DNA of 34,050 nt. Source: an uncultured virus (IMG/VR IMGVR_UViG_3300037245_002282). Its lineage: Duplodnaviria > Heunggongvirae > Uroviricota > Caudoviricetes. Of the stretch, positions 1 through 31,505 are shown in pieces; position 1 is the first letter of the stretch, and each line of letters opens with the position of its first letter. The notes beneath the pieces are model-generated. The model did no database searches, had not been told where the DNA came from, and saw nothing but the letters and a program-made list of their open reading frames with translations. The translations under genes and the position numbers were made by a program. The stretch lies in IMG/VR virus record IMGVR_UViG_3300037245_002282; one strand, 5' to 3'.

Positions 1-2518
1 CGCCACCAGCAAGGCCCTGTAAAAGAACTCTTGCACCACGAATAGTAACCCAACGCATTCCACGAGCTTTCACTTCATCGGCTGAATAGTATTTCTTACC
101 GTTACCATTCGATTTTCGAAGTTCACCCAGCCAGTAAAACTTAATCGGTTTACCTTTCTCAAGAAGATACCATTGTCCAGTGGTTTTACTCTTAACCATA
201 CTACCGTCCGGGATAGATTTCCGTACTCCAAACCTGTCTACCAGATTTGTGATTCTTTGTTCCATAATTCGCCTCAGTTTCGGGTCTTCAATACCCGCCA
301 AAATAACACCTTTCTTAGCTAATACGTTTGTCAGTTGATCTTGAATATCAACATCTGTTACGAGACCGAACACCGAGGAAGCCGAGCGAGAGGGATCACG
401 TAGACTCTCTACCTCCGTAACGTCGCTGTTAAATGCGGCACCTTTTGGTTTCCCCTGTGCGCGGTATCTCAATGATCCACCATTATCTATTCGCCATATC
501 TTTGAACCATCCCATATCACATTATCATTATCCATACCGAGTACATCCCAGTTACTTACCAACGCATCGGCTACAAATCCATCTCGAATCTGGTCTCTTG
601 CTTCAGCCTGTTCATCGCCATGAAGTTCTGATAATGGAACACCCTCAATAAAATCGGCAACCTGTACAAGCTTCCCTTCTTTATCATGAGAGAGCTGAAC
701 ATCAGGCACATTGATACCTAATATTTTATAGATTCTATTTGCTGTATATTCATCCTTAAGATGGCCTTCACTTGTGGATCGCTTCAAAACTTTTTCTTCA
801 CCGTTGACGAATCTAACTTTAATTGCTCCGCCAGTGGTCCCGCCCAGATTCTTAAGGCTGGCATATGATCCCATACTTTTCGGGCGTTTGCTCCCATTCT
901 GGGGATAGATATAATTCCAGCGACCATTCTTAAAATACTTTTTAACATATTTTTTACCTACTGCTTTCTGTAGATTGGAAGACATAGATTCTTTGACTTC
1001 ATCAGATCCAAATAAGTACATAGCATATTTCAATGAAAGTTTTGTGAAAGCCTCGTTTGTATTATTGGAAGATTTACTCTTCTGAATCAAAGAAACATTC
1101 AATTTCATAAAATTGATATTAGGCCGTCCGTGAGTTTCATAATCCCAATTATCAGGAGCATACTGATCATCCCATTTAATAGATTCAGTTATTTCAAAGC
1201 CATACTTAGAATATATCTTCGGCAGAACATCACCGAAACAATCCAATTTCTTTGCACCATTTTTAATCGATGTCTTCATAATTAAAGAACCTTCACGGGC
1301 ACCCGGTTCAGAGAAAACAGAGATAAGATCTCCATCCCCTGTAATAACAAAACCGCTCTTACCGGTAGCGGATACAAATGTCTTAGCTCCTTTCTTTTCA
1401 TAATCTTCTGCACTATACGCTGTAACAAAGGCTTCAAACTCTTTGGGAGTCTTCGCGTTTCTGATAGGTATAAACTCAGCCAGTGGAACAGAAGAATAAT
1501 CCACGACCGGCGGTGCTGCTTTCTTCGCTGTGAACTCAGCTATAGGTTTCTTTTTAATCTGTTTAGGGTCACGGATATCAACCCATTTACCTTCCGAGAC
1601 TTTTCTACGACCACGGGAAACTGTACCAATCGGCATACGTTTAGCTTTCTGCATATTTGCTTTATCCCATAATTCGGTTATATATTTTCTATCTGTAAAA
1701 TCAAGTTGAGTTCCAAATAAAACGCTAATATACTTAGCACCCTTTTGTTTTAGATTAAAATACCTATGATTACCATCTTCAATATTTATATTTCCTTTAT
1801 AATCAACACTCACCCTTATCGGTTCATTGGGATTTCTAGGTTTATGTTTACCTATCGTAGTTTCTTTAGTATGCCCTTTTGTAGGCTGTATTTCAGATAT
1901 TAAGAGTCGCATTGGTTTTCTATTATTCATAAAATCAGAAGCACTAGTGTATGCTTTCGCTTCTTCGTTAATAGAATGTCCTTTTAAAGAATGCTTAAAA
2001 TCAGTATACGTATATACTGGCTTCCCATTAACTATTTTTTTAGAGATATACTTATGACTTAAAGCTTTTTTCAGCTTCATACCACGCTTTTCCTTCAGCA
2101 TGATTTTAAAAGTCGCCATGTCCACAATGGTCATGTCCTGATAAAACTTAGGATTATCGTACTGATTGATATACGCGGTTTTCGCTTCAACAGCGCTGTT
2201 AAATCCTAAAAGAACCTTATCTTCATCATAAGCGCCTGTCTCCGGGACCTGTTGATGAATGATGAATACTTTATCACTGAACTTATTATTTCCCAGATAC
2301 ACATCGACATGATCACCATCTGTACCTTCTGTAGCCCGCACGTAGCCGTATTGGAAATGCATGAAATTCCGCCATGGTATCCCGGTTAACGGATTCATAC
2401 CCTGACGATAACTACCTCTCTCATTTTCTATAGAGATAGGAAGACCCTGAAACTTACATTTTCCTTGTAGTTTATGACTGCGCCAGTCGACTGCATTAGT
2501 GATTATACCGCGTTTCAC
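1..2518 (-). CDS. Large multidomain (polyvalent-type) protein, >839 aa, truncated at the window edge: inorganic pyrophosphatase-like, ParB/Srx-like, GNAT-like and HipA/PI3K-like kinase domains
   Basis: Not in the ORF track. Manual translation from GTG at 2518 (directly after the upstream TAA) stays open to position 2. Motifs: YGYVRATEGTDGDHVDVYLG...DEDKVLLGF (~2090-2500); IEDGNHRY (~1760-1785); GAKKLDCFGDVLPKIYSKYGF...WDDQYAP (~1110-1500); LGGTTGGA..VLK..E..NWDVLGMDNDN..RIDNGGSL (~260-860). Confidence 0.85.
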   Translation of the reverse strand, partial: MKRGIITNAVDWRSHKLQGKCKFQGLPISIENERGSYRQGMNPLTGIPWRNFMHFQYGYVRATEGTDGDHVDVYLGNNKFSDKVFIIHQQVPETGAYDEDKVLLGFNSAVEAKTAYINQYDNPKFYQDMTIVDMATFKIMLKEKRGMKLKKALSHKYISKKIVNGKPVYTYTDFKHSLKGHSINEEAKAYTSASDFMNNRKPMRLLISEIQPTKGHTKETTIGKHKPRNPNEPIRVSVDYKGNINIEDGNHRYFNLKQKGAKYISVLFGTQLDFTDRKYITELWDKANMQKAKRMPIGTVSRGRRKVSEGKWVDIRDPKQIKKKPIAEFTAKKAAPPVVDYSSVPLAEFIPIRNAKTPKEFEAFVTAYSAEDYEKKGAKTFVSATGKSGFVITGDGDLISVFSEPGAREGSLIMKTSIKNGAKKLDCFGDVLPKIYSKYGFEITESIKWDDQYAPDNWDYETHGRPNINFMKLNVSLIQKSKSSNNTNEAFTKLSLKYAMYLFGSDEVKESMSSNLQKAVGKKYVKKYFKNGRWNYIYPQNGSKRPKSMGSYASLKNLGGTTGGAIKVRFVNGEEKVLKRSTSEGHLKDEYTANRIYKILGINVPDVQLSHDKEGKLVQVADFIEGVPLSELHGDEQAEARDQIRDGFVADALVSNWDVLGMDNDNVIWDGSKIWRIDNGGSLRYRAQGKPKGAAFNSDVTEVESLRDPSRSASSVFGLVTDVDIQDQLTNVLAKKGVILAGIEDPKLRRIMEQRITNLVDRFGVRKSIPDGSMVKSKTTGQWYLLEKGKPIKFYWLGELRKSNGNGKKYYSADEVKARGMRWVTIRGARVLLQGLAGG

Positions 2519-3010
2519 TTACGATCTCACTTTATGTTTAACTTTTGAAAGATCTACTTTACTAATATGTGCACCACCACCCTTAATAGCTACCTTAAAA
2601 CCACCAATGGGCGTTTTAAAATACATGCTATGCCGATCTTCACCGGTACCTAGAAATACCATGTGAGATTTATCCCCTTTATTACGTATAATATCTGCCA
2701 AACGAAGCATAGTATTTCGATCTGTCGGTTGACCGCCAGCATTCTTTAACGCCAAGGATACCACTCTCTGTATACCTTTCGGTAGACTAGTCATAAACTT
2801 ATCCCCATCACCCGACGATACTGTATTATCAGAATCTTTTTTTGCATATATCTTTTCAGGTTCTATTTTCTTCGCGATACGCTTTTGACCACCTTTGGGA
2901 CCGTATTCATACTTATAGTTCCCCGGCGATCCAGTCCGTTTGGTATATCGCGCTTTACGAAGTTCCTGAGCATACTCTCTAGCACTAAAAATTATAATTT
3001 CTCGTTCCAT
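2519..3010 (-). CDS. Hypothetical basic protein with LRKA-tag N-terminus (likely head-associated)
   Basis: ORF 2519..3109; the better start is ATG at 3010 (MEREIII...), after AAGGA and abutting the upstream stop. Contains ELRKARYTKRTGSPGNYKYEY. Confidence 0.7.
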   Translation of the reverse strand: MEREIIIFSAREYAQELRKARYTKRTGSPGNYKYEYGPKGGQKRIAKKIEPEKIYAKKDSDNTVSSGDGDKFMTSLPKGIQRVVSLALKNAGGQPTDRNTMLRLADIIRNKGDKSHMVFLGTGEDRHSMYFKTPIGGFKVAIKGGGAHISKVDLSKVKHKVRS

Positions 3011-3011
3011 A

Positions 3012-3242
3012 TCATTCCTTCTTTTTAAATGCGGGGCATTCGAATATAGCTGACGAAGTACCATACTTAAGATTAAATGCCAGTAATTCCGTAGCGATAT
3101 GACATCCATAAATACCCTTCATCATATAAAACTTACAATCAGGACAGAGCATATGATCGTGATAATCCCACCCGTCATTTTTCTTAACAGCTTCATAGCC
3201 GTGTCCGTGAACAGATTTTATTTTACCATTATTTGTACCCAT
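3012..3242 (-). CDS. Small Cys-rich hypothetical protein
   Basis: 76 aa, CPDC...C...C pattern, AGGT upstream, fits tightly between its neighbours. Confidence 0.6.
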   Translation of the reverse strand: MGTNNGKIKSVHGHGYEAVKKNDGWDYHDHMLCPDCKFYMMKGIYGCHIATELLAFNLKYGTSSAIFECPAFKKKE

Positions 3243-3248
3243 GGGGAC

Positions 3249-3917
3249 CTACTTTTTAGGAGTACGTACCTTCGGAGGTTGATGTTTACTTGCGCTCTCA
3301 GGTGCACTTGATCCAATTTCTTCAGGACGTACAATAATGGTCCTTCGACCAAAATTGTTATATGCTTGACTACCAGAACCAGAAACAGAAGTAGAATAAT
3401 TTGTATAGGGTTTCTTTTCCCCCTTTACTCTACCCTTTCCATCCACGCGTTTATTATCCACATGATCCCCTTCATCTTCAGGAATACTTGAGCCGATCAT
3501 TCTTTTAGTGGCCATCTGAGCAAACTTAATTCTCTCAGCGTGACCCTCGTAAGGAATCTTGCTTTTTATCTTACCCCCCGGAGCCGATAAGCTCGCCGGA
3601 TGCTGCGCTTTTTCCAGAGGTTCAATTTCTCCGGGAATTATAATCAATGCAAATCTTGTTTTCATATCACCCTCCACAAGCGATTTTTCCACCTTTGAAA
3701 GATGGGTATAATATTTTGAATCTTCATGCAAGTGATCCAGCGCAATCTCCCGCGCTACAGACTTACTTGAAGTATGTTCCATTTCCACTTTAATTCCACG
3801 GGCTAATTCTTTAGGATCTACATTCATTGAATGACCTTCCTTATGAAGACCTTCTTTTTTTAAATGAGCCACAGCGGCTTTACTCATTATTATTATCCTC
3901 CGCCGGATCAAATCCAA
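3249..3917 (-). CDS. DUF5661-like protein
   Basis: ELARGIKVEMEHT...AREIALDHLHEDSKYYTHL matches the DUF5661 motif as recalled. The start is uncertain. Confidence 0.7.
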   Translation of the reverse strand: MDLIRRRIIIMSKAAVAHLKKEGLHKEGHSMNVDPKELARGIKVEMEHTSSKSVAREIALDHLHEDSKYYTHLSKVEKSLVEGDMKTRFALIIIPGEIEPLEKAQHPASLSAPGGKIKSKIPYEGHAERIKFAQMATKRMIGSSIPEDEGDHVDNKRVDGKGRVKGEKKPYTNYSTSVSGSGSQAYNNFGRRTIIVRPEEIGSSAPESASKHQPPKVRTPKK

Positions 3918-4015
3918 GTATCTGTATAACGGCTTTCGGGGTTGATTCTAACTTATCATTATCAGAATCAGTATCAGATATCCATTTAATCTCATCGGCT
4001 GTACCAATATACACA

Positions 4016-4906
4016 TCAGGGTCTTTCAATCTTCCGCCTCCACTTCTCAAAAATAGCAGGGTTTACATAACTACCCAGAGCTACTGCCCTTGTATTACCC
4101 AGTTGATGTGCTACAGCGTCCCCAACTGCCTTAACCCGCTTTTTATATTCAGCCATAGTTGCTGGGGTTTTTCCCCTCATGGCTTTCATAGCCACTTCCG
4201 TTCCAAGATGTGTTCGGAAATCTTTACTTTGAAATCCGGCATTATTATCTAATCTATGGGTATATCTTAAAAGACCATCTCCGGTAACTCCGAATAACCG
4301 CCTATTTTTTCCAGCTTTACTCTTTCGCTTCAATAACATCTTAGCTACATCCGCATCCTTTACAGGAATCTCAAGATCAACTCCTTTTTTTCCGATGAAC
4401 TTGAGGGATACACCTGACTCGGTTCGCATCACGTGTCTGCCTTCCAGCGTTGTGGCTCCGAATGCGTCCACGCTGCCTCTGGTATTCTTTTCGCTTCCCG
4501 GTCTTATCCCCGTACTCATTATCAGCCATAACACCGTAGCGGCCTCGTTTTTTCCCTTTACGTCGGCTGCCACTTCCCTGCTGATTTCCTCGAACACCTT
4601 GTTCAGGGATTTGATCCTCGCAAACTTCTCTTTGCTCGCAGCGTCTACATGTGCCGGATTGTAAATGTATTGCACACGCCCTTTCGCGTCTTCGCCTTTC
4701 ACCCACAGCTTCGATTTCGGATCGTTGAAGTACTGAAGATTCTTCCATGCAGGCGGAACTTTGAACTTGTTCTGTATACGAGCCGGTAGTTCTCTCCGAT
4801 GCTTCACCGGTACCCACCTGCCCTCTGCTACTTTCACGTACTTTCCGCTCTTGCTCTTCGCACCTATAGCTACGCGTTTCGCTTTGGTAAAAATAACCAG
4901 TACCAT
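4016..4906 (-). CDS. DNA topoisomerase IB (bacterial/viral type)
   Basis: VPPAW, GEDAKGRVQYIY, GIRPGSE (Arg), FIGKKG (Lys), KDFRT (Arg) and LGNTRAVALGSYVNP (catalytic Tyr). Confidence 0.9.
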   Translation of the reverse strand: MVLVIFTKAKRVAIGAKSKSGKYVKVAEGRWVPVKHRRELPARIQNKFKVPPAWKNLQYFNDPKSKLWVKGEDAKGRVQYIYNPAHVDAASKEKFARIKSLNKVFEEISREVAADVKGKNEAATVLWLIMSTGIRPGSEKNTRGSVDAFGATTLEGRHVMRTESGVSLKFIGKKGVDLEIPVKDADVAKMLLKRKSKAGKNRRLFGVTGDGLLRYTHRLDNNAGFQSKDFRTHLGTEVAMKAMRGKTPATMAEYKKRVKAVGDAVAHQLGNTRAVALGSYVNPAIFEKWRRKIERP

Positions 4907-4909
4907 TTA

Positions 4910-6481
4910 TCATTCCACCACTATCCGCAACGTTCGCTCTTTTGATTTAGTCAAAGAACGTAACTCTTTTAAAGACTTTTCAGCCCTAACTTCATCTTTT
5001 TCCGTTCTAGTAGAATTGACCTCTTTTTCACCCGCATCTTCCTCATCGGCATTTGATGATTCAGAATACTGGCCCTCTCCGAGATCACCATAATCACCCA
5101 TACCCTGTTCTTGCATAGCTGCTTGTTGTTCCTGAGCTTTACCTGCGAGGAATATCTGTACAGCCTGAGCATTCATAGGCATCTTTGACCAGTCTTCATT
5201 ATACGGTTCATCCCCATCTTCAACACGAACTTCATCAATAGACCGCCATCCCATAATTTGTTTATTACGGACTTCAGCTTTCTTCTGTTCATCCTCACGC
5301 TCAAGACCAACAAACTTAAATCTATATTTTTTGGTTACTTTTCTAATAACTTTATTAACATGCTGTTCAGCAAATCCCAGCATGGAAGCAAGTCCCCTAT
5401 CTTTAGAAGACTGAATTCTCGGTTCCGCATTCTCACTTATAATTGATGTACTATCGTCTGTTTTAATTCCCAGCTCGGCAAGATCCATTGAGAAAACAGC
5501 ACCAACAAGAGAGGATATAAACATCATTGTCTTATGATATTCCATATCTTTATTGTTTGATGATAAGTTTTTGAAATCGATCCCCACACCATCTTTACCA
5601 CTCGGGAGAATTGGAATATTAAATTGAGCACCTGCACCTGTCATAGCTGCATACCAATAATTTCTAATACTATCGAGCTGAGGTTTTGCCACATCACCCA
5701 TAACTGATATAAAACCTTTCGGCACACGATCCTTGATCAACTGATCTCTGATATAATTGTAACCGAATAAAAGTGTGGTTATGATATTGATACACATTTC
5801 AACAGGACTGTATCCATAACCTCTATATTTAACGTCAGATCTTTTAAATTTATAATCAAATATAAGATTTTCACTCTTATACTCTTCATAAATCTTATCA
5901 TCAATTTTCTGAACAAATCGAATATCCTTACCCCACCGCTTTTCATCAGTAACACGTGATATAGTTGCGCCGTCTAATGCCCAGAATGCCACCGGCTCGC
6001 CCATTCTATTGTATTGAATCTCCGTAGCAATCTGATCAATTTCATAAGTGTCCCTAACAAGCATGGATATATAATCCATAAAGTCATCCTCACGTTCCCC
6101 GTCAAATACAAAACCGGTCTGTTCTATGAAATTAGTTAATTGGATTATTTCACTTTCATTTTCCTTTTCACCCCTGAACTCTTCTGTCCGATTTTCAATC
6201 TCAAAACGAAAACCACGGTCATTCTGTTCCGTGGCATATTTTAAAAAGGGGAGAATCTGATCCTGTCGAGTATTGATAATCCCATTGATTAACGGCAACT
6301 GACCAACAGAGCGTCTGAGTGTTTCAAAATTAAGCTGAAGAATACGTTCACGTACTCCCTGCGCCCCGCCCCATAACCAATTTTGGACTCTTGGATCTAC
6401 GAGCTGACTAGTTAATTTTTTAATCGTGGCATCTTCATTAAAGCTGACTGCTGTGTTATTATTTTTCTTTCTTCTTGCCAT
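4910..6481 (-). CDS. Phage portal protein
   Basis: ~523 aa with YGYSPVE, VPKGFISV, IPILP, DMEY and WRSIDEVRVEDGDEP segments typical of large-phage portals, plus an acidic C-terminal tail. Probable start ATG 6481 (MARRKK) with GAGGT upstream. Confidence 0.88.
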   Translation of the reverse strand: MARRKKNNNTAVSFNEDATIKKLTSQLVDPRVQNWLWGGAQGVRERILQLNFETLRRSVGQLPLINGIINTRQDQILPFLKYATEQNDRGFRFEIENRTEEFRGEKENESEIIQLTNFIEQTGFVFDGEREDDFMDYISMLVRDTYEIDQIATEIQYNRMGEPVAFWALDGATISRVTDEKRWGKDIRFVQKIDDKIYEEYKSENLIFDYKFKRSDVKYRGYGYSPVEMCINIITTLLFGYNYIRDQLIKDRVPKGFISVMGDVAKPQLDSIRNYWYAAMTGAGAQFNIPILPSGKDGVGIDFKNLSSNNKDMEYHKTMMFISSLVGAVFSMDLAELGIKTDDSTSIISENAEPRIQSSKDRGLASMLGFAEQHVNKVIRKVTKKYRFKFVGLEREDEQKKAEVRNKQIMGWRSIDEVRVEDGDEPYNEDWSKMPMNAQAVQIFLAGKAQEQQAAMQEQGMGDYGDLGEGQYSESSNADEEDAGEKEVNSTRTEKDEVRAEKSLKELRSLTKSKERTLRIVVE

Positions 6482-6509
6482 GGATATCTGGTACCTCACT
6501 ATTAAGTTG

Positions 6510-9629: not shown

Positions 9630-10526
9630 TCACAAATTATCAGCAATGTTCTGAAGTGTCTGTTTCGAAGCAGCTTCCAAATCAACAGCTTTATCCCACA
9701 GCGCGTGATCTACATGAGCTTCCACTGCGTCATCAACCACTTGCTCAAGCACTGAAGGCTGCAAGGCATCTAGTTCCCATGAAGCATCTCCGTACTGATC
9801 GGCATAAACTTCAAATCTTGAGTCAGTCTGTTTAGCGGGATTCTCCGGGGGATTGTATAATTTGATCTGAGGCATATTAAGAGCTATACGATCCACTACA
9901 ATCGGAATATCCTCTTCAGCCTCTTCCCGGTATCCAAGGAACAAGTTCATCCTGTCTTCAACATCTCGTGTCATATCCATCCCAGACGGATCGTGGTCTC
10001 CCAAATAAATCAGATGTAAATACTTCCCTTCGAAATGTGCTGCCTCAAATCTCTTCCCGGCTTCGTACAATGCACTCTGACTTGAATATCCACGATTAGC
10101 CATAAAGATTACATCCCACTTCGAACAGACCGGCTGAATGATATTTGATACGGCGTCTTTTTCACACCACACCTCAACATATTCATTTTGATACTTCCAG
10201 CGACTTTCATAATATCCATTGACTGCTGCATCAAGAATATGTTTCGGATTTCTCCAATGAGTATTCTCTTTAGGATTTCTCACCCTGTCCTCAATCATAT
10301 TCCAGTCAATGAATCCGGCCAACCTGCCCTTATTCACAACATTCCCGATCTTCTTATATTCCCTTTGATTATTCGGGATATGATCTCCCGCTACCAACTG
10401 ATAATACAATTGTCTCAATGTCAGTTTATATCCTTGACTTCTATAATCCTCAAGGATATCATTTATGATATCAATCAATTCCATAGATCTAGCAGACGGT
10501 CGCCATGGTGTAAACTCTTCTTTCAT
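9630..10526 (-). CDS. TOPRIM-domain protein of the Topo VI-A/Spo11/DUF2399-like group
   Basis: TLRQLYYQLV (winged-helix Tyr region), VEVWCEKDA (Glu) and YLGDHDPSG (DxD). Confidence 0.75.
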   Translation of the reverse strand: MKEEFTPWRPSARSMELIDIINDILEDYRSQGYKLTLRQLYYQLVAGDHIPNNQREYKKIGNVVNKGRLAGFIDWNMIEDRVRNPKENTHWRNPKHILDAAVNGYYESRWKYQNEYVEVWCEKDAVSNIIQPVCSKWDVIFMANRGYSSQSALYEAGKRFEAAHFEGKYLHLIYLGDHDPSGMDMTRDVEDRMNLFLGYREEAEEDIPIVVDRIALNMPQIKLYNPPENPAKQTDSRFEVYADQYGDASWELDALQPSVLEQVVDDAVEAHVDHALWDKAVDLEAASKQTLQNIADNL

Positions 10527-14828: not shown

Positions 14829-15794
14829 TTATCGACGTACTCGCGTATTACTTACATCATCTATTATATCTGAAAACAACGCAGGAAGAATCTGTTTTAA
14901 CTCAGCCAATAAAGTCAACATCAATTCCTGAATCTGTGGATGGGCTGCTTTTGCTGTTCTCAACTTAAATATATAACGCCACTCTCTAATATTTACAGTA
15001 ACAACAATTTCAGCTTTCAAACTATTGGGAAGAACGGATCTTGCTTCCTGAGCTGAACAACCTTGCTCTCTCAATAACTTATAACTCATTTCAGCCTCAT
15101 GCATTGCAATAGACCACAATCTAAACTTTGTAGTAGAACCTGCTGATAAATTACGTGCCCAGTCAAAAACAGGTCGAATAAACTCGGTATCACCATCATA
15201 TTTCACATAACGGGTTGACTCCTGAGCAAATGAAGCAGGTCTATGTCTAACGAGTTCATGAGTAACACCGCGATCTGTAATAAATCGTACAGAAATCCGT
15301 TGATGAATAACCCTTTCTTCTGAAGTGAGATCTTCATTGTTTAATACTTTAAAGATATCACTGTTTTGATATACAGATTTACAATTTAAATCAAAAAACA
15401 AATCATTTAAAAAACGATTGAAGTAAGCAATAACACTTCTTATATTTGTTGATATTAAAGTTGCTTTTTGTAAATCTCTCCATGCCCTAACGCTCCCTGA
15501 TAGTATATACCTTGATTTATAGGATGTCATTTCTAAATACTTTGTAGTATTATGTTGTAAATTAAATATTTCATCATAAAATCTGGAAGATACTTCAAGA
15601 ATAATATTGGAATGCTCAATCATAGCGTCATGACCACATTTAATAAGCCTTCTACAAAAATCATTTGCAGAATCATCTGTAATTTTATCCTCAGACTTGT
15701 AACAGGTTCTCCCCGCAATCTCAATCATCTTTGGAATCGTCACAAGTTCGAATGTACTCGTAAGTATCTTATGACTTTGATTTATAACTATCAT
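14829..15794 (-). CDS. thyX: FAD-dependent thymidylate synthase
   Basis: GRTCYKS, GHDAMIEH, THELVRHRPASFAQESTRY (RHRx7SxR) and ARSVLPN. Confidence 0.95.
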   Translation of the reverse strand: MIVINQSHKILTSTFELVTIPKMIEIAGRTCYKSEDKITDDSANDFCRRLIKCGHDAMIEHSNIILEVSSRFYDEIFNLQHNTTKYLEMTSYKSRYILSGSVRAWRDLQKATLISTNIRSVIAYFNRFLNDLFFDLNCKSVYQNSDIFKVLNNEDLTSEERVIHQRISVRFITDRGVTHELVRHRPASFAQESTRYVKYDGDTEFIRPVFDWARNLSAGSTTKFRLWSIAMHEAEMSYKLLREQGCSAQEARSVLPNSLKAEIVVTVNIREWRYIFKLRTAKAAHPQIQELMLTLLAELKQILPALFSDIIDDVSNTRVRR

Positions 15795-15797
15795 CCT

Positions 15798-17072
15798 TCA
15801 CTCCTTATCTTTAAATAATAAATCTGTATACCGTGCCGGATCACCTTTCGATCCAAGAAGAGCACTGTTTAAATTACACCCTATAGTATCTGTAAATATT
15901 ATACCGTCAAAACTATACTCTGGAAATATATATTCAGAATACTCCTTTACAGCAACAGCTGGAATATCTCTAAACTCTATTATATGATCAACACGTCCCT
16001 TTCGATAAAGAGCAGGGTCAATCTTATCGAGATGATTCGTTGTCAGAAATATTATCACATTATGTATATTTTCTATCCCGTCCAACCCGTTTAATAAGCC
16101 GGATAAAGTTGTAAAGGTAAAGTCACACTCTTCTATTTTTGATAACGGATGTTTATCACCATTAGAATCTTCAGATCTCTCTGTTCTTCTTTTCCTTGCG
16201 GCCTTAGTAGAATCAAAATCCTCTATAACCACAAAGGAGTTGGGAGGTGTTTGAGATAAAGCTCTCTGAAAAGAAGTATCTGAAACAGATCCGATATTCA
16301 ATATACATAAGTTTTTATCATAATAAGATGCAAGAGTTTTTATAGTGCTGGTCTTCCCTGTACCGGGTATTCCATGAAGAATATACGTAAGCTTATACGG
16401 CAGGCCTTTTGATACAAACCAGTCTTCATTTGAATTAAAATGTTTTATATCATTCAATAACCGCTGTTTTATTTCGTAATCAAGAGCCAATGACTCAATC
16501 GGACGTTTTTTCATAGGTGCATTTTTTCGCCAACTATCGTTGTAATGATATGAGAATATTTCATTCTTTTTCTCTTTCGGAGCAAACTCTTTTATGAAGC
16601 TATCTAATATCGATTTATTTCTACCGAAATACTTTAATAATATTGATCGTTTTTGAAGCTCTGATCCAGATGATTCAATAGCCGATAAAACCATCCACAT
16701 AATTTTACCTTTGTATATAAACCAGTGTGTTCCATATCCGGGACCTAATATAACGCTTTCTATCTCCCGCTTTAAGTCATCGTCCCACCCCTCATAGGTA
16801 TAAATAGAAAGAAATCTTGAGAACCTTAAAAATCCTTTATTTTCAGACAACCACTGCATACACGAATAATAAATCTTTTGATGGTAATATCCCTGCGCGT
16901 TATCAAACTCAAGGGAAGTAATCAACTGAGTTTTTATCTTTGAAAATATTTTTGCAGGAATAGTTCTTATCAGAAATGTTATTACAGTTAAACCCCATAA
17001 AGATATAACCCCGGCAAGTATAGGTGACGTCGATGCAAGTTCCGTTAATCTTAAATATATATCCGTTAACAT
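15798..17072 (-). CDS. BCS1-like membrane-anchored AAA+ ATPase
   Basis: N-terminal TM helix, PGYGTHWFIYKG (BCS1-N-like), Walker A GIPGTGKT, Walker B VVIEDFD, TLSGLLNGLDG and TTNHLDKIDPALYRKGRVD. Confidence 0.88.
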   Translation of the reverse strand: MLTDIYLRLTELASTSPILAGVISLWGLTVITFLIRTIPAKIFSKIKTQLITSLEFDNAQGYYHQKIYYSCMQWLSENKGFLRFSRFLSIYTYEGWDDDLKREIESVILGPGYGTHWFIYKGKIMWMVLSAIESSGSELQKRSILLKYFGRNKSILDSFIKEFAPKEKKNEIFSYHYNDSWRKNAPMKKRPIESLALDYEIKQRLLNDIKHFNSNEDWFVSKGLPYKLTYILHGIPGTGKTSTIKTLASYYDKNLCILNIGSVSDTSFQRALSQTPPNSFVVIEDFDSTKAARKRRTERSEDSNGDKHPLSKIEECDFTFTTLSGLLNGLDGIENIHNVIIFLTTNHLDKIDPALYRKGRVDHIIEFRDIPAVAVKEYSEYIFPEYSFDGIIFTDTIGCNLNSALLGSKGDPARYTDLLFKDKE

Positions 17073-20446: not shown

Positions 20447-20530
20447 TCACAGCATTACGGCAATCAAAATACTGAAAATCAGCAATATACAAAAATTAAG
20501 ATACACCCATGGTTTCATGTGATCTTTCAT
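20447..20530 (-). CDS. 27-aa single-helix membrane peptide
   Basis: MKDHMKPWVYLNFCILLIFSILIAVML; ATGA overlap with the upstream stop; fills the gap. Confidence 0.45.
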   Translation of the reverse strand: MKDHMKPWVYLNFCILLIFSILIAVML

Positions 20531-20937
20531 TCCGTAATCCATAACAAACCATTTAATACGTTATGTATTGTAGATTTTGATACATTATACTCTTTTGCAA
20601 GAAGACAGCGCGATACGCCGTCTGCGGATTTCATACGGATTTCTTCTGCCAGATCCATATTTAATTTACACCACCCTGATTTTTGATTAAGCTCTAATCT
20701 GTCTACCCACTTACTGTTTTCCGGGGTATAATTTTTAGACTTGTCAATTCTCATAAGATGCGGTTTACCGGTAGGTCGAAGTCCCATGTCGGCATAAAAG
20801 TTATTAAAGTCATATCTCCATCTGCCGCACACTATGATACCTTTACCGCCTGTCCATTGGTATCCGCTGCTGAATGCATTGTGACAACGCTGTATCATAT
20901 CCTGCCATGAATTATATTCTGGTTTTCTATCTGCCAT
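20527..20937 (-). CDS. HNH-related phage protein with C-terminal HTH (active site looks degenerate)
   Basis: WQDMIQRC, GIIVCGRW, FYADMGLRP, LMRIDKSKNYTPENSKW and LAKEYNVSKSTIHNV. Confidence 0.75.
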   Translation of the reverse strand: MADRKPEYNSWQDMIQRCHNAFSSGYQWTGGKGIIVCGRWRYDFNNFYADMGLRPTGKPHLMRIDKSKNYTPENSKWVDRLELNQKSGWCKLNMDLAEEIRMKSADGVSRCLLAKEYNVSKSTIHNVLNGLLWITE

Positions 20938-27883: not shown

Positions 27884-29062
27884 CTATCGCAGTTCCAGCA
27901 CTTCCCCGAAAGGAGGCGTGAAGTCCCACTCACCCGCGTAGTACTTCTTCTGGACCCATAGCACAGGGAATGCCGGGGCAACCGGAAACTGATTACACTC
28001 ACCATCGGTAAAGTAAAGCATACAGACCGGAAGTTTCCCCTGATCATCAATCAGATCGAAAGGCGGTCTAAAGTCCGTTCCACCTCCACCATGTACTTTC
28101 AATACTACGGTATCACCGGCTGGAAACTCATCTACTTTATTTACCTGAGTATCACAATAGATCACGGTACAATCTGCCTGATAGTCCTGTAGGATCGCAT
28201 TGATCTCACCTGCGAACTGATCAAGCTGTTCCTGTCCGATACTTCCACTGGTATCCACAGCAGCTACCACACTGCCCAGCTCATTACTGGATAATGCCGG
28301 GAGATAAATCCCACGACCGATCCAACGCCTGTTCGGACGGCCCCATGAATAATCATTCTTAGAACACGTATCCACAAACCTGCGTAAAATCTCTCTCCAA
28401 TCAAGCTTCGGTTCAAGGATATTCTCGATAACACGCGCCATCGATCCCGGAAGATTACCGGAAGCCCTTGCCTGTTGCGCGGCCTGAGCCATTGCAACTT
28501 TCCAATCCTGAGACGCCTTGCTTTTATCCGCTTCACCTGCCGGAGACTTTCCATCTTCAGCTTTAGCATCACGGACTTCCCCGCATTTCCCCGGATCATG
28601 ACTCTTCTTCTTACCATCCCCGTTTCCCTTACCACTTCCACCGTCCTGCGGATCCTTCGGTTCAGGCGCAGGTAACAAAGAATAAACCTGTTCAGCCGTT
28701 TTATCTCTAAACCTATCATCCAGCGCTCCGCCTTCCGGTAATTTCATACCTGAGTCTACAATCAAAGGATTGATCACATAATCCCCAGCCATGTTCCATC
28801 TCTCAGGATCACGGTCCCCACGTCTCGTATGATGCTGCAATCCACAGTGCATGACTTCATGACATATTAAACCTTTCAATTCATCAAGGCTTAACGAGTC
28901 GATGAACTCAGGATTAAATCCCAAAGTCGTACCATCAACCCACGCGGTCTCACACGTCGGATCTTCTTCGGTCTTAAGTCTCAATGCCAATGATCCAAAG
29001 AAAGGTTGATCGAGAATCAACCCGGCTCGACCCTTCGCAAACTTCTTACTCATATCACTCAT
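27884..29062 (-). CDS. DUF2201-type metallopeptidase-like plus VWA domain protein
   Basis: TAWVDG, HEVMH (HExxH), WNMAGDYVIN, MIDAS DTSGS, GGGGTDF and FTDG. Confidence 0.9.
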   Translation of the reverse strand: MSDMSKKFAKGRAGLILDQPFFGSLALRLKTEEDPTCETAWVDGTTLGFNPEFIDSLSLDELKGLICHEVMHCGLQHHTRRGDRDPERWNMAGDYVINPLIVDSGMKLPEGGALDDRFRDKTAEQVYSLLPAPEPKDPQDGGSGKGNGDGKKKSHDPGKCGEVRDAKAEDGKSPAGEADKSKASQDWKVAMAQAAQQARASGNLPGSMARVIENILEPKLDWREILRRFVDTCSKNDYSWGRPNRRWIGRGIYLPALSSNELGSVVAAVDTSGSIGQEQLDQFAGEINAILQDYQADCTVIYCDTQVNKVDEFPAGDTVVLKVHGGGGTDFRPPFDLIDDQGKLPVCMLYFTDGECNQFPVAPAFPVLWVQKKYYAGEWDFTPPFGEVLELR

Positions 29063-29133
29063 AAGCAAACCTCCATGACTTTCGTCAGGTCACGGTACTA
29101 GTTCTATCTAATACCGTCCCCCGACGCCTGCGC

Positions 29134-30065: not shown

Positions 30066-30371
30066 CTAAACATCACTTTTACTAGATTTAAACTCTATAT
30101 GTTCAGCAAAAATAACGATGTTTTTTGTTTCTGGATACTGTCTTAATCTTCCAACTACTCTAACACACCTACCTTTTTTGATAGTGGTCAAACAAATATC
30201 TGCAAACTTCCCAAATGTTTCAATCGCATAAATTGAAACCTCTTGCACCGGCGTACCCTCTACTTTATAGAATCTAGTTGATTTAATATTAAAATTACAA
30301 CCAGAATTACCTATTCTAACAGGATCGTCAATTAAAACACCTTCCAATAAAACACTATTTAAATCATTCAT
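30066..30371 (-). CDS. ssb: Single-stranded DNA-binding protein (short, no acidic tail)
   Basis: MNDLNSVLLEGVLIDDP...KKGRCVRVVGRLRQ...AEHIEFK OB-fold; AAGGAG RBS. Confidence 0.85.
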   Translation of the reverse strand: MNDLNSVLLEGVLIDDPVRIGNSGCNFNIKSTRFYKVEGTPVQEVSIYAIETFGKFADICLTTIKKGRCVRVVGRLRQYPETKNIVIFAEHIEFKSSKSDV

Positions 30372-30437
30372 ATACACTCCTTAATACTTAACTTAATGAA
30401 TGCCACCTGTAAAGATGACACTCTTAAATTAGTAACC

Positions 30438-31421
30438 CTAAATCAAAACGTCACTATTCTCAGCACTCCAAGAAATAAAGGCCCTCGTAGAAACAAGTGT
30501 TTCATCCCTCTCAATTGCATCCCGGATTAATAATACTGAAAACTCAACAGGTAAGCGCAAGGCATACTTGACGATATTCTCAAAGTTCTGATCACTGGCT
30601 TTATATGCAAGCGCTCCGCAGATTGCATATAGGGTAGCTGGTTCAGTTGGAATCGCTACCTTATCCGGTGACATTATCACTAAATCGGGATCAGGTAAGT
30701 TCCTGTAAATATTCAGAAACCCGATCAATTCCGACGCTGCACCTTCACCCACTATACCGGCTACCAGATCATATTCGATATTTCTACCGGCCACTTTTAA
30801 AATCTGACTGGTAAACTCCCATGACCTTGGAGTCGGGAAAGCTTTCTCGTTTTTCTGAGGGTCGAACTTATGAAGCAATTCAGGTCGGAATCGCAGAAAT
30901 GCGATAATCTCTGTCTGTACTTCATTAGTCAAGGCCCATTTGATCCAGTCAGCCATATCCACATCAAAGTTAATATGTACGAACCGGTTCGCGAGTGGTG
31001 AAGGCATCCTTGAAGTAACGGCCCGATCCGTCTCACGATTACCGGCGGCAATTATGATACAGTCTTTAGGCAGTGTATACTCGCCAACCTTTCTGTCCAG
31101 AATTAACTGGTAGCAGGCAGCCTGAACAAGCGGCGGTGCCGCATTCAGTTCATCAAGAAATAGAATGTATTTTTTATTCCCTTTAGGCAGGAAACTGGGC
31201 GGACACCATCGTGTATCACCTTCCTCGGTTATCGTAGGAATCCCACGAAGATCAACCGGATCAAGCAACAGCGCCCTTACATCTATCAGCGTTCTTTTCA
31301 ATACCTTAGCGAGCAGCCTTAATATGTCGGACTTTCCAACACCCGGTGCGCCCCATAAAAATACAGGTCGTCCCGCAGCTACACACACTTTTAACGCTTC
31401 TAATACTCTACTTGGTTTCAT
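30438..31421 (-). CDS. MoxR-like AAA+ ATPase
   Basis: GAPGVGKS, ILFLDELN, AAGNR and PLANRF; GGAGG RBS before MKPS. Confidence 0.9.
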   Translation of the reverse strand: MKPSRVLEALKVCVAAGRPVFLWGAPGVGKSDILRLLAKVLKRTLIDVRALLLDPVDLRGIPTITEEGDTRWCPPSFLPKGNKKYILFLDELNAAPPLVQAACYQLILDRKVGEYTLPKDCIIIAAGNRETDRAVTSRMPSPLANRFVHINFDVDMADWIKWALTNEVQTEIIAFLRFRPELLHKFDPQKNEKAFPTPRSWEFTSQILKVAGRNIEYDLVAGIVGEGAASELIGFLNIYRNLPDPDLVIMSPDKVAIPTEPATLYAICGALAYKASDQNFENIVKYALRLPVEFSVLLIRDAIERDETLVSTRAFISWSAENSDVLI

Positions 31422-31505
31422 GCAAACCTCCATGCATGGAACGGATTGGATTTTTTAATAACCGTTCCCCTCTGTGCTCTCATATGAAAGCGCAGTAGGT
31501 AAAAG

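Follow-up and report, generated by a model that had tools for sequence, protein, structure and literature searches.

Candidate head-protease sites and basic hairpin tags at the domain junctions of portal-linked cargo proteins in an uncultured phage

The internal proteins of T4 and the head proteins of phiKZ and SPN3US carry an N-terminal address that ends in a prohead protease motif, and are loaded into the head, trimmed, and ejected with the DNA. Phage-type polyvalent proteins, which count InPase among their phage-only domains, were also predicted to be packaged and injected (Iyer, Burroughs, Anand, de Souza and Aravind, J Bacteriol 2017; PMC5512222). In phage P1, the N-terminal 30 residues of DarB suffice for packaging and the N-termini of the Dar proteins show no consensus (PMC9024508); DarA is trimmed by the prohead protease, and the capsid protein is cut at E120/S121 (PMC9024508, PMC12810830). 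HK97 gp5 is cut at K103/S104 (PMC10275583). We describe here the left end of a stretch of 34,050 nt from an uncultured virus (IMG/VR IMGVR_UViG_3300037245_002282; the whole stretch is called the window), where the genes, all on the minus strand, encode a portal protein, a polyvalent protein and smaller proteins that share a short Lys-containing site, a hydrophobic leader and basic hairpin tags.

Like the capsid targeting sequence of T4, the element found here is a short N-terminal sequence common to cargo proteins and ending in a protease motif. It differs from the gp21-type motifs of T4 and phiKZ (L/I-x-E or A/S/G-x-E) in reading [LM]-x-K/[AS], the slash marking a predicted cut after Lys. It differs also in that conserved sequence flanks the site, with a leader preceding and a basic hairpin following, and in lying also between the domains of a polyprotein. 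The original prediction, made from the bare sequence, had taken T4 gp21 and phiKZ gp175 as its model; those proteases cut after Glu, and an HK97/SPO1-like protease, predicted to cut after Lys, has to take their place. As in HK97, a Lys stands before Ser in a PHI-x-K-S context (PHI, a hydrophobic residue) ahead of the capsid N-arm, and the catalytic His and Ser of the protease align; unlike HK97, which has no separate scaffold or known cargo, this phage group has a scaffold gene and cargo genes. The chain of unrelated effector domains (InPase, ParB-like, helicase) lying beside portal and head genes recalls the polyvalent proteins of Iyer et al. (PMC5512222). Those authors proposed that domains are released by a built-in zincin metallopeptidase (MPTase), whereas here a head-protease motif stands at the junctions; the parts of their paper considered do not describe short hairpin tags or a hydrophobic leader (PMC5512222). 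As in the P1 system of DarB, DarA and Hdf, the head genes include one for a giant DarB-like protein with a helicase, and others for its small partners (PMC9024508, PMC12810830). The parts of the P1 literature considered do not report DarB as cut into domains, and in contrast to P1 many unrelated cargo proteins share here one leader, one site and one tag. A literature search found no publication that joins polyvalent proteins with prohead-protease sites or describes these junctions.

In our best explanation, an uncultured myovirus-type phage whose capsid, protease and scaffold genes are of the SPO1/Mecenats66 kind has its head "cargo" block at the left end of the window, and an HK97-type head protease cuts the cargo at the tag junctions; motif statistics and analogy make this probable. 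The cargo units, be they proteins of their own or single domains of the polyprotein, generally start with a junction module composed of an optional short hydrophobic leader strand, a site [Leu/Met]-x-Lys/[Ala/Ser] and a basic beta-hairpin of ~25 residues (type A, PIGTVSxGRKKVAEGKWVxV; type B, KYIRRYxxxGKWxYxY; others besides). Cargo precursors would enter the prohead, and there the HK97-type serine head protease would cut after Lys, separating the cargo enzymes; the same protease would degrade the scaffold and trim the capsid protein, itself and the portal tail. Each freed enzyme would keep the basic hairpin at its new N-terminus, and the hairpin would hold it in the prohead core or on DNA until ejection with the genome. 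The hairpin may do so by binding the acidic scaffold or DNA; it may instead dock to the capsid or portal, or offer the protease an exosite. A broader proposal is possible, and we make it tentatively: a wide group of uncultured myoviruses that have SPO1/Mecenats66-type heads would share the module as a portable address in three parts, any enzyme bearing it, N-terminally or between domains, being loaded, cut free and delivered with the DNA, and the portal tail, which has the same site and a terminal strand, may dock cargo leaders by strand pairing.

The window holds only part of the polyvalent protein. Open reading frame (ORF) 2..2518 encodes only the first 839 of 1783 residues, the full length being read from an identical IMG/VR contig. 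The domains and junctions of this part are listed below, with hidden Markov model (HMM) matches given as independent E-values (i-E) and structures predicted with AlphaFold2 (AF2), whose local confidence score is pLDDT; P0002 is a relative of the protein.

2..2518, minus strand: polyvalent protein, in the order InPase, tag B, ParB-like, tag A, GNAT-like, tag B, kinase-like, two hairpin junctions.
2096..2467 (residues 18-141), minus strand: InPase domain, PF18823 (E 7e-38 in the 839-residue ORF); AF2 pLDDT >90 over 20-140.
1994..2080 (residues 147-175), minus strand: junction 1, LKKA (residues 149-152) and a type B hairpin tag, HMM i-E 1.8e-9 (copy in the training set); AF2 gives a low-confidence coil, then a hairpin at 161-168.
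1664..1993 (~residues 176-285), minus strand: candidate ParB-like segment, with a DGNHR motif.
1562..1663 (residues 286-319), minus strand: junction 2, MQKA (residues 289-292) and a type A hairpin tag, HMM i-E 5.8e-17 (copy in the training set); in AF2 a helix ends at MQKA and a hairpin follows at 304-314, pLDDT 77-89.
1088..1531 (~residues 330-477), minus strand: candidate GNAT-like segment; tblastn match to Streptomyces phage genes annotated acetyltransferase, E 4e-9; phrog_2563.
1076..1087 (residues 478-481), minus strand: IQKS site at the end of the GNAT-like segment, no tag after it; VMKS in P0002; low-confidence AF2 helices.
893..973 (residues 516-542), minus strand: junction 3, LQKA (residues 516-519) and a type B hairpin tag, HMM i-E 5.6e-12 (copy in the training set); AF2 hairpin 526-537.
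230..865 (residues 552-763), minus strand: protein-kinase-like domain, AF2 pLDDT >90.
134..226, minus strand: junction 4, VRKS (residue 765), MVKS (residue 774) and a hairpin at 783-795; VNKS and LLKS in P0002; AF2 coil, then hairpin.
17..121, minus strand: junction 5, LRKS (residues 800-803) and hairpin MRWVTIRGARVLL (821-834), opening the helicase module; LMKA in P0002.

The K[AS] and tag strings quoted in the original prediction are all present on the minus strand where it had placed them. Its claim that a basic tag precedes each domain holds for the three junctions that have a type A or B tag; low-confidence helices come after IQKS, and hairpins of other kinds after MVKS and LRKS. Outside the window the same protein continues with a coiled-coil region and then an SNF2 helicase; over the 1783 residues, InPase is matched by PF18823 at E 1.6e-37 and the helicase by PF00176, PF04851 and PF00271 at residues 1327-1721. 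In PHROGs, the InPase region falls in the "DarB-like antirestriction" and "minor head protein" families (phrog_10089, DarB-like). On the strength of the InPase and SNF2 helicase Pfam matches and of this DarB-like/minor head placement, we class it as a phage-type polyvalent protein sensu Iyer et al. 2017. It has at least two unrelated effector domains (InPase and SNF2/helicase by Pfam, and a kinase-like fold by AF2 and Foldseek) and a head-gene neighbourhood, with the portal three genes upstream and protease, scaffold and capsid genes downstream in a relative whose polyvalent protein is ~75% identical. Neither an HEXXH motif nor a peptidase Pfam match, as expected for an MPTase domain, was found in the 1783 residues, so that the self-processing proposed by Iyer et al. 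is unavailable to this protein; members of the family often have such a domain, but it is not obligatory.

The end of InPase, GMKLKK[SA], is kept across 28 aligned relatives. DGNHR is a motif which we take to be a ParB-like family signature; AF2 left the ParB-like segment unfolded, and P0002 is devoid of it. Neither this segment nor the GNAT-like one matched Pfam (E up to 5) or PDB sequences, and the two names, taken from DGNHR and from the tblastn match to acetyltransferase-annotated genes, remain candidates. The best Foldseek matches of the kinase-like domain are H. pylori CtkA, RIO kinases and actin-fragmin kinase (E ~1e-6), and in six relatives that differ in their architecture the junction-3 tag likewise stands ahead of the kinase-like domain. 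Four InPase-bearing relatives (P0027, P0028, P0043 and P0141) terminate in a site followed by a hydrophobic strand (e.g. ..NMRKSKLVLRLK), which is what a gene broken within a junction would look like; among cargo ORFs at large, C-termini of this kind showed no clear excess (5/77 tagged vs 18/455 untagged ORFs).

The identical contig mentioned above (L001, 24 kb, same phage) extends the window by 6.2 kb and ends before the protease gene; past the window it encodes two more cargo proteins with leaders, MRLFIKA and MILILKA. A search of GenBank phages for DNA near-identical to the window found none, and in tblastn the polyvalent protein behaves as a mosaic whose domains match 662 phage records piecemeal. 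Three contigs (L002-L004) encode a polyvalent protein ~75% identical to that of the window. One of the three, G003, measures 80.8 kb, at an estimated completeness of 84%. Its portal gene is followed by those for topoisomerase IB, DUF5661, the 164-aa protein, the polyvalent protein (1657 aa) and several unknowns, and then, downstream, by those for head maturation protease (phrog_1028), scaffold (phrog_15087) and capsid protein (PF17236).

Tag copies were collected from the best 150 of 17,488 relatives of the 839-residue query, and simple patterns gave 38 further copies. The copies align into two distinct families, with the consensus L-E-K-A-K-R-M-P-I-G-T-V-S-x-G-R-K-K-V-A-E-G-K-W-V-x-V for type A and L-E-K-[AS]-K-Y-I-R-R-Y-x(3-5)-G-K-W-x-Y-x-Y for type B. 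By regular expressions and HMMs trained on the same matches, type A was found in 24 and type B in 19 of the best 150 relatives. An independent result came from a type A HMM trained without any topoisomerase, which matched the N-terminus of the window's topoisomerase IB at i-E 3.6e-6; the likeness between the two had been noticed in the original prediction, and both tags are real, widespread modules. No Pfam model matched either tag at E up to 5. When IMG/VR was searched with ten type A tags, 31 loci were returned, one being the window's own contig; in the other 30, tags are borne by 77 of the 578 ORFs called, with 93 tag domains altogether (i-E <0.01), some of them of type B although the query had none. 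Tagged ORFs lie downstream of the portal in 49/49 cases (loci with a recognisable portal) and upstream of the protease in 22/24 (loci with a recognisable protease), and a six-frame scan of the window, L001 and G003 gave no tag match at E <0.5 outside cargo genes. The HMM survey across relatives, which had been suggested as a check, thus places the tags within the portal-to-protease block. The same query against one genome each of 185,579 prokaryote species returned only 3 loci, all on short contigs of metagenome-assembled genomes. Mean net charge of the tags is +6.1 over 29 residues. We conclude from these sequence comparisons that the tags are conserved, portable modules within the portal-to-protease block in the viral loci examined. 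A cultured phage with a canonical type A or B tag was not found, in a tblastn search of GenBank phages with one 35-residue tag, a query short enough to make the result uninformative; in the cultured Morganella phage Mecenats66, only the leader, the site and hairpins of other kinds are present.

The site itself was characterised in the scaffolds of the relatives. In the loci found with the tag, the ORF in scaffold position, after the protease homologue, contains 7-11 sites vs 1.0-1.7 expected in 9/9 cases, two of them from near-identical phages. A specificity scan of nine scaffolds (2393 aa, one of two near-identical scaffolds being left out) showed a tripartite preference. At P1, Lys was observed 74 times vs 12.0 expected, every other residue being at most 2.1-fold enriched and Glu not at all (11 vs 11.7). 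At P1', Ala (49 vs 6.7) and Ser (25 vs 5.8) stood out, with Gly at 2.1-fold, and at P3 Leu (46 vs 3.6) and Met (22 vs 2.0), with Ile, Val and Phe at ~1-fold. The reversed motif occurred 15 times vs 12.3 expected, and reversed and shifted controls ranged from 1-fold to 2-fold. Owing to the Leu/Met preference at P3, the bare K[AS] motif put forward originally is refined to [LM]-x-K-[AS]; its enrichment in scaffolds, proteases and at the capsid boundary of the relatives stands. The [LM].K[AS] totals are as follows.

Scaffolds: 67 observed vs 6.0 expected (~11-fold).
Proteases: 48 observed vs 5.3 expected (9-fold).
Capsid proteins: 14 observed vs 4.3 expected.
Tagged ORFs: 176 observed vs 59.5 expected.
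Other plus-strand ORFs: 129 observed vs 88.2 expected.
Minus-strand ORFs: 2 observed vs 4.4 expected.

In G003, the scaffold has 8 PHI-x-K-[AS] sites vs 0.89 expected (0/300 shuffles reach 8) and the protease 4 vs 0.88; the 15 ORFs from capsid gene to portal have 45 vs 18.9 expected, and the other 72 ORFs 50 vs 41.8. In the polyvalent protein of the window, there are 12 PHI-x-K-[AS] sites vs 7.2 expected (p 0.06), and 7 vs 2.6 for the strict motif (p 0.02). A comparison with chance frequency had been proposed at the outset; it reveals a strong excess in the relatives and a modest one within the window.

Sites and tags go together. In 77 of 82 non-redundant tags, a PHI-x-K-[ASG] site lies at most 12 residues upstream (background 9.7% of windows), and 53 of these sites fit the strict motif. 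Their P3 residues are Leu 51, Ile 10, Met 8, Phe 7 and Val 1, and their P1' residues Ala 44, Ser 19 and Gly 14. As many as 33/77 lie within 25 residues of the ORF start, many behind a leader M-[KR]-L-hydrophobic(3)..K-[AS], for instance MKLLLKAK or MRLVILHKAK, and the like recur in many tag loci; this conserved N-terminal leader had been overlooked in the original prediction. In 31 of 44 internal tags, a second site precedes the first by at most 25 residues (background 18.8%), and the stretch between the two often contains a hydrophobic strand resembling the leader.

In all ten capsid proteins, and in that of G003 as well, [LM]-x-K-A-L is found at residues 23-37, at the boundary of the capsid propeptide, with the GG..SLE N-arm following 14-20 residues later. 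A paralogous site is present in the proteases, ahead of a C-terminal copy of the capsid N-arm segment. In G003, the C-terminal region of the protease (265 aa; L008:17650-18447) repeats the N-terminal segment K-A-L-x-A-G-x-G-V-D-A-S-x-F-x-G-G-R-A-L-x-P-E-S-L of the capsid protein (L008:15548-16942), each copy coming directly after an [LF]-x-K-A site. From its sequence, the protease looks like mimicking the capsid N-arm to enter the prohead. The G003 protease matches phrog_1028 "head maturation protease" at E 1.1e-21, and Pfam S78_2 at E 0.14 only, below threshold. One His and one Ser are invariant in the family alignment, and both align when the family profile is compared with HK97 gp4 (hhalign probability 54%, E 1.3e-4). 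For the SPO1 homologue, the score with Pfam Peptidase_S78 (PF04586) is 23.7 bits, above the cutoff of 21. At the HK97 gp5 cut, the sequence TFNK/SLGSDADSAGSLIQP is of the form PHI-x-K/S, just ahead of the N-arm. The capsid protein of G003 is ~28% identical to those of SPO1-like phages and Mecenats66. SPO1 has 5 sites in its scaffold vs 0.43 expected and a capsid site DALNKA/LEAG; Mecenats66 has 6 vs 0.66 expected and a capsid site SMMKS/LTAG. A literature search for experimental N-termini of SPO1-like or Mecenats66 capsid proteins found none. In A511-like phages, about 23 residues are removed from the capsid protein. Taken with the counts in scaffolds, proteases and at the capsid boundary, these comparisons support the view that K-[AS] behaves as would a signal for the head protease of the phage itself; that cleavage would follow the motif Lys is suggested by the analogy to HK97 K103/S104 and by the motif statistics.

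Structures were predicted for two pieces, residues 1-345 from a 28-row alignment (mean pLDDT 66) and residues 470-839 from one of 27 rows (mean pLDDT 80). All seven sites of the first 839 residues fall outside the confident cores (InPase 20-140; kinase-like 552-763). LKKA, VRKS, MVKS and LRKS are in predicted coil, MQKA and LQKA at helix ends, and IQKS in low-confidence helices. A two-stranded hairpin is predicted after 5/7 sites, with pLDDT 77-89 for type A and 50-71 for the others.

Comparison with relatives indicates, at the level of sequence, that cassette exchange happens exactly at the junctions. The window protein and P0002 are 83% identical from residue 323 onward and 69% over residues 1-150; between these stretches, P0002 has a short segment and a tag B instead of the tag B/ParB-like/tag A cassette. 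The five downstream sites are kept, with x and the Ala/Ser residue varying (window/P0002: IQKS/VMKS, LQKA/LQKS, VRKS/VNKS, MVKS/LLKS, LRKS/LMKA). The DUF5661 protein of G003 has an extra N-terminal domain of ~85 aa joined at SLSKS/KAAVDHLKKEG, the same point as the window's leader. In Mecenats66, the helicase module is a separate protein (ORF61), which starts MKRLMIKA/SIPAGAKWITV and aligns from residue 820 of the window's protein, just past LRKS. As a negative control, the 5553-residue polyvalent protein of Bacteroides phage BKO1-TP3 has no tag and 6 sites vs 5.65 expected, and its InPase domain ends without a junction site.

The genes between the portal and the polyvalent protein, in the order topoisomerase IB, DUF5661 protein, 164-aa protein and 1783-aa polyvalent protein after the portal, carry the same elements; their Pfam identities are PF04860 for the portal, PF01028 for topoisomerase IB and PF18905 for DUF5661, with PF18823 for the InPase that follows.

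4910..6499, minus strand: portal protein, PF04860; C-terminal tail AEKS..LTKS/KERTLRIVVE at window 4913-4984.
4016..4906, minus strand: type IB topoisomerase, PF01028; leader MVLVIFTKA and type A tag (residues 6-37) at window 4796-4906.
3249..3917, minus strand: DUF5661 cargo protein, PF18905; leader (M)DLIRRRIIIMSKA at 3876-3917, RIIIMSKA; VEKS at the domain end and LEKA further on.
2519..3010, minus strand: 164-aa cargo protein; N-terminal LRKA and type B-like tag at 2894-2962, type B HMM match weak (E 0.057).

In the 164-aa protein, where a type B tag had been claimed, LRKA and a tag-like segment are indeed found; given the weak match, the segment is better described as a subtype Y..R.G.PG.Y.Y.Y, the copy of a relative reading MRIIIVDPIELLKS/NYTKRTGTPGNYKYYY. 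The leader and type A tag of the topoisomerase occur in 32 of 120 topoisomerase IB homologues, including 31 of the 32 closest to the query, and the rest have other N-termini. Many of the more distant homologues (P0186-P0222) have [DE]-x-[DE]-H-P-R-x(3-5)-G-[KQ]-F-x(2-4)-G-G-G in the place of tag A, which may be another portable phage tag. We also considered whether the type A tag derives from the N-terminal domain of cellular topoisomerase IB, as its first hairpin; the positions correspond by eye, but profile comparison found no match (probability 0.1%), and homology was rejected. A 298-aa protein encoded at 9630-10526 (minus strand) matches phrog_6247 "DNA topoisomerase" (E 3e-107) and has no leader or tag; it was rejected as an untagged paralogue of the tagged enzyme, the two proteins being unrelated.

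In the portal tail, an acidic run precedes one or more PHI-x-K-[AS] sites, and the chain closes with a hydrophobic strand (..LTKSKERTLRIVVE in the window; ..MEKSLTDFRKSTDALERRVRIVIE in the relatives, loci L016-L042). Both the strand and a PHI-x-K-[AS] site no more than 45 residues from the end are found in 11 of 14 relatives' portals and in that of G003. AEKS and LTKS, which had been pointed out at this C-terminus, are both present. AEKS lacks the Leu or Met of the refined motif and occupies the same place as the MEKS/MRKS-type sites found ~20 residues from the end in 6 of the 14. The terminal strand resembles the N-terminal leaders of the cargo. The portal gene ends in tandem stops, TGA TAA (window 4904-4915), and the topoisomerase ATG comes directly next, in frame; read-through from portal to topoisomerase was considered and rejected, the frames being continuous with two stop codons in between.

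Several points weigh against processing at the junctions. The case for processing, in this phage and its tagged relatives, is made from sequence and predicted structure, and the Mecenats66 paper contains no proteomics. The phage's own protease, scaffold and capsid genes were not recovered, so that the argument leans on a relative with a ~75% identical polyvalent protein, and the assignment of its protease to family S78 is no more than moderately supported by the profile match and the sub-threshold Pfam score given above. Counted within the window only, the sites show a weak excess (p about 0.02-0.06), and the significance comes from the relatives; motif expectations were derived from shuffles that preserve composition only, and the ORFs of the tag loci are simple longest-ORF calls. 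Other points favour a specific alternative, in which the junctions are small structural or adaptor minidomains of leader strand and hairpin with K-[AS] as a turn, cargo is packaged and injected uncut, and only scaffold, capsid protein and protease are processed at [LM]-x-K-[AS]. The tag-adjacent site is a conserved column of the tag alignment itself and could be structural. MQKA and LQKA are predicted at helix ends rather than in free coil, pLDDT being 50-66 around the type B tags, and Gly, only 2.1-fold enriched in scaffolds, is at P1' in 14/77 tag-proximal sites. Uncut packaging of large cargo is also known, from P1 DarB and N4 vRNAP in the parts of those reports considered (PMC5512222, PMC9024508). 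We nevertheless regard this alternative as unlikely. The P3, P1 and P1' preferences next to tags resemble the scaffold motif, with more Ile, Phe and Gly; 31/44 internal junctions have their second site upstream of the leader-like strand, outside the minidomain; sites also occur without a tag (IQKS, VRKS, the InPase end), and the untagged BKO1-TP3 protein has no motif excess.

The exact exchange at junctions (the tag B/ParB-like/tag A swap, the extra DUF5661 domain, the separate helicase gene of Mecenats66) and the restriction of the tag to just 32/120 topoisomerase IB homologues would also fit shared linker cassettes that serve recombinational shuffling of effector domains and have no role in processing or packaging. 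Such cassettes would leave unexplained why the same tripartite motif fills scaffolds, flanks the proteases and marks the capsid propeptide, and why the tags are so basic; conservation is at the protein level, with x variable and Ala and Ser exchanging. Shuffling is moreover compatible with cleavage at the junctions as a consequence rather than an alternative, and as a full account it seems to us quite improbable. As to mere chance, with motifs arising from a Lys-rich composition and tags being fortuitous resemblances, the window-only motif count is near expectation (12 vs 7.2, p 0.06). The independent HMM match on the topoisomerase, 93 tags in 30 unrelated loci, position-specific enrichments of 6-fold to 12-fold with flat reversed and shifted controls, and a site in 10/10 capsid proteins make chance scarcely credible.

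If the head protease does cut the cargo at the tag junctions, this would explain how polyvalent proteins without a built-in peptidase are separated into working enzymes, and, for phage heads other than those of the T4 and phiKZ groups, the module would be the first cargo address that is shared and defined by sequence. Injected proteins would become predictable from sequence alone, here topoisomerase IB, a kinase-like enzyme, a pyrophosphatase and an SNF2 helicase, which would presumably serve counter-defence or take-over. A short portable tag with a release site could also be used for loading chosen proteins into phage capsids. As the proposed cut is after Lys, ordinary tryptic digests cannot tell a junction cut from a tryptic one, which may be why such cutting went unnoticed in proteomics.

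No terminase was recognised upstream of the portal in the window. The rest, from 6500 to 34050 (minus strand), is a replication and nucleotide-metabolism block with many small ORFs that have no PHROG match. It includes a thymidylate synthase-like gene at 14829-15794, two AAA/clamp-loader-like ATPases at 15798-17072 and 30438-31433, two HNH endonucleases at 20527-20937 and 27884-29068, and a single-stranded DNA-binding protein (SSB) at 30066-30377, all on the minus strand.

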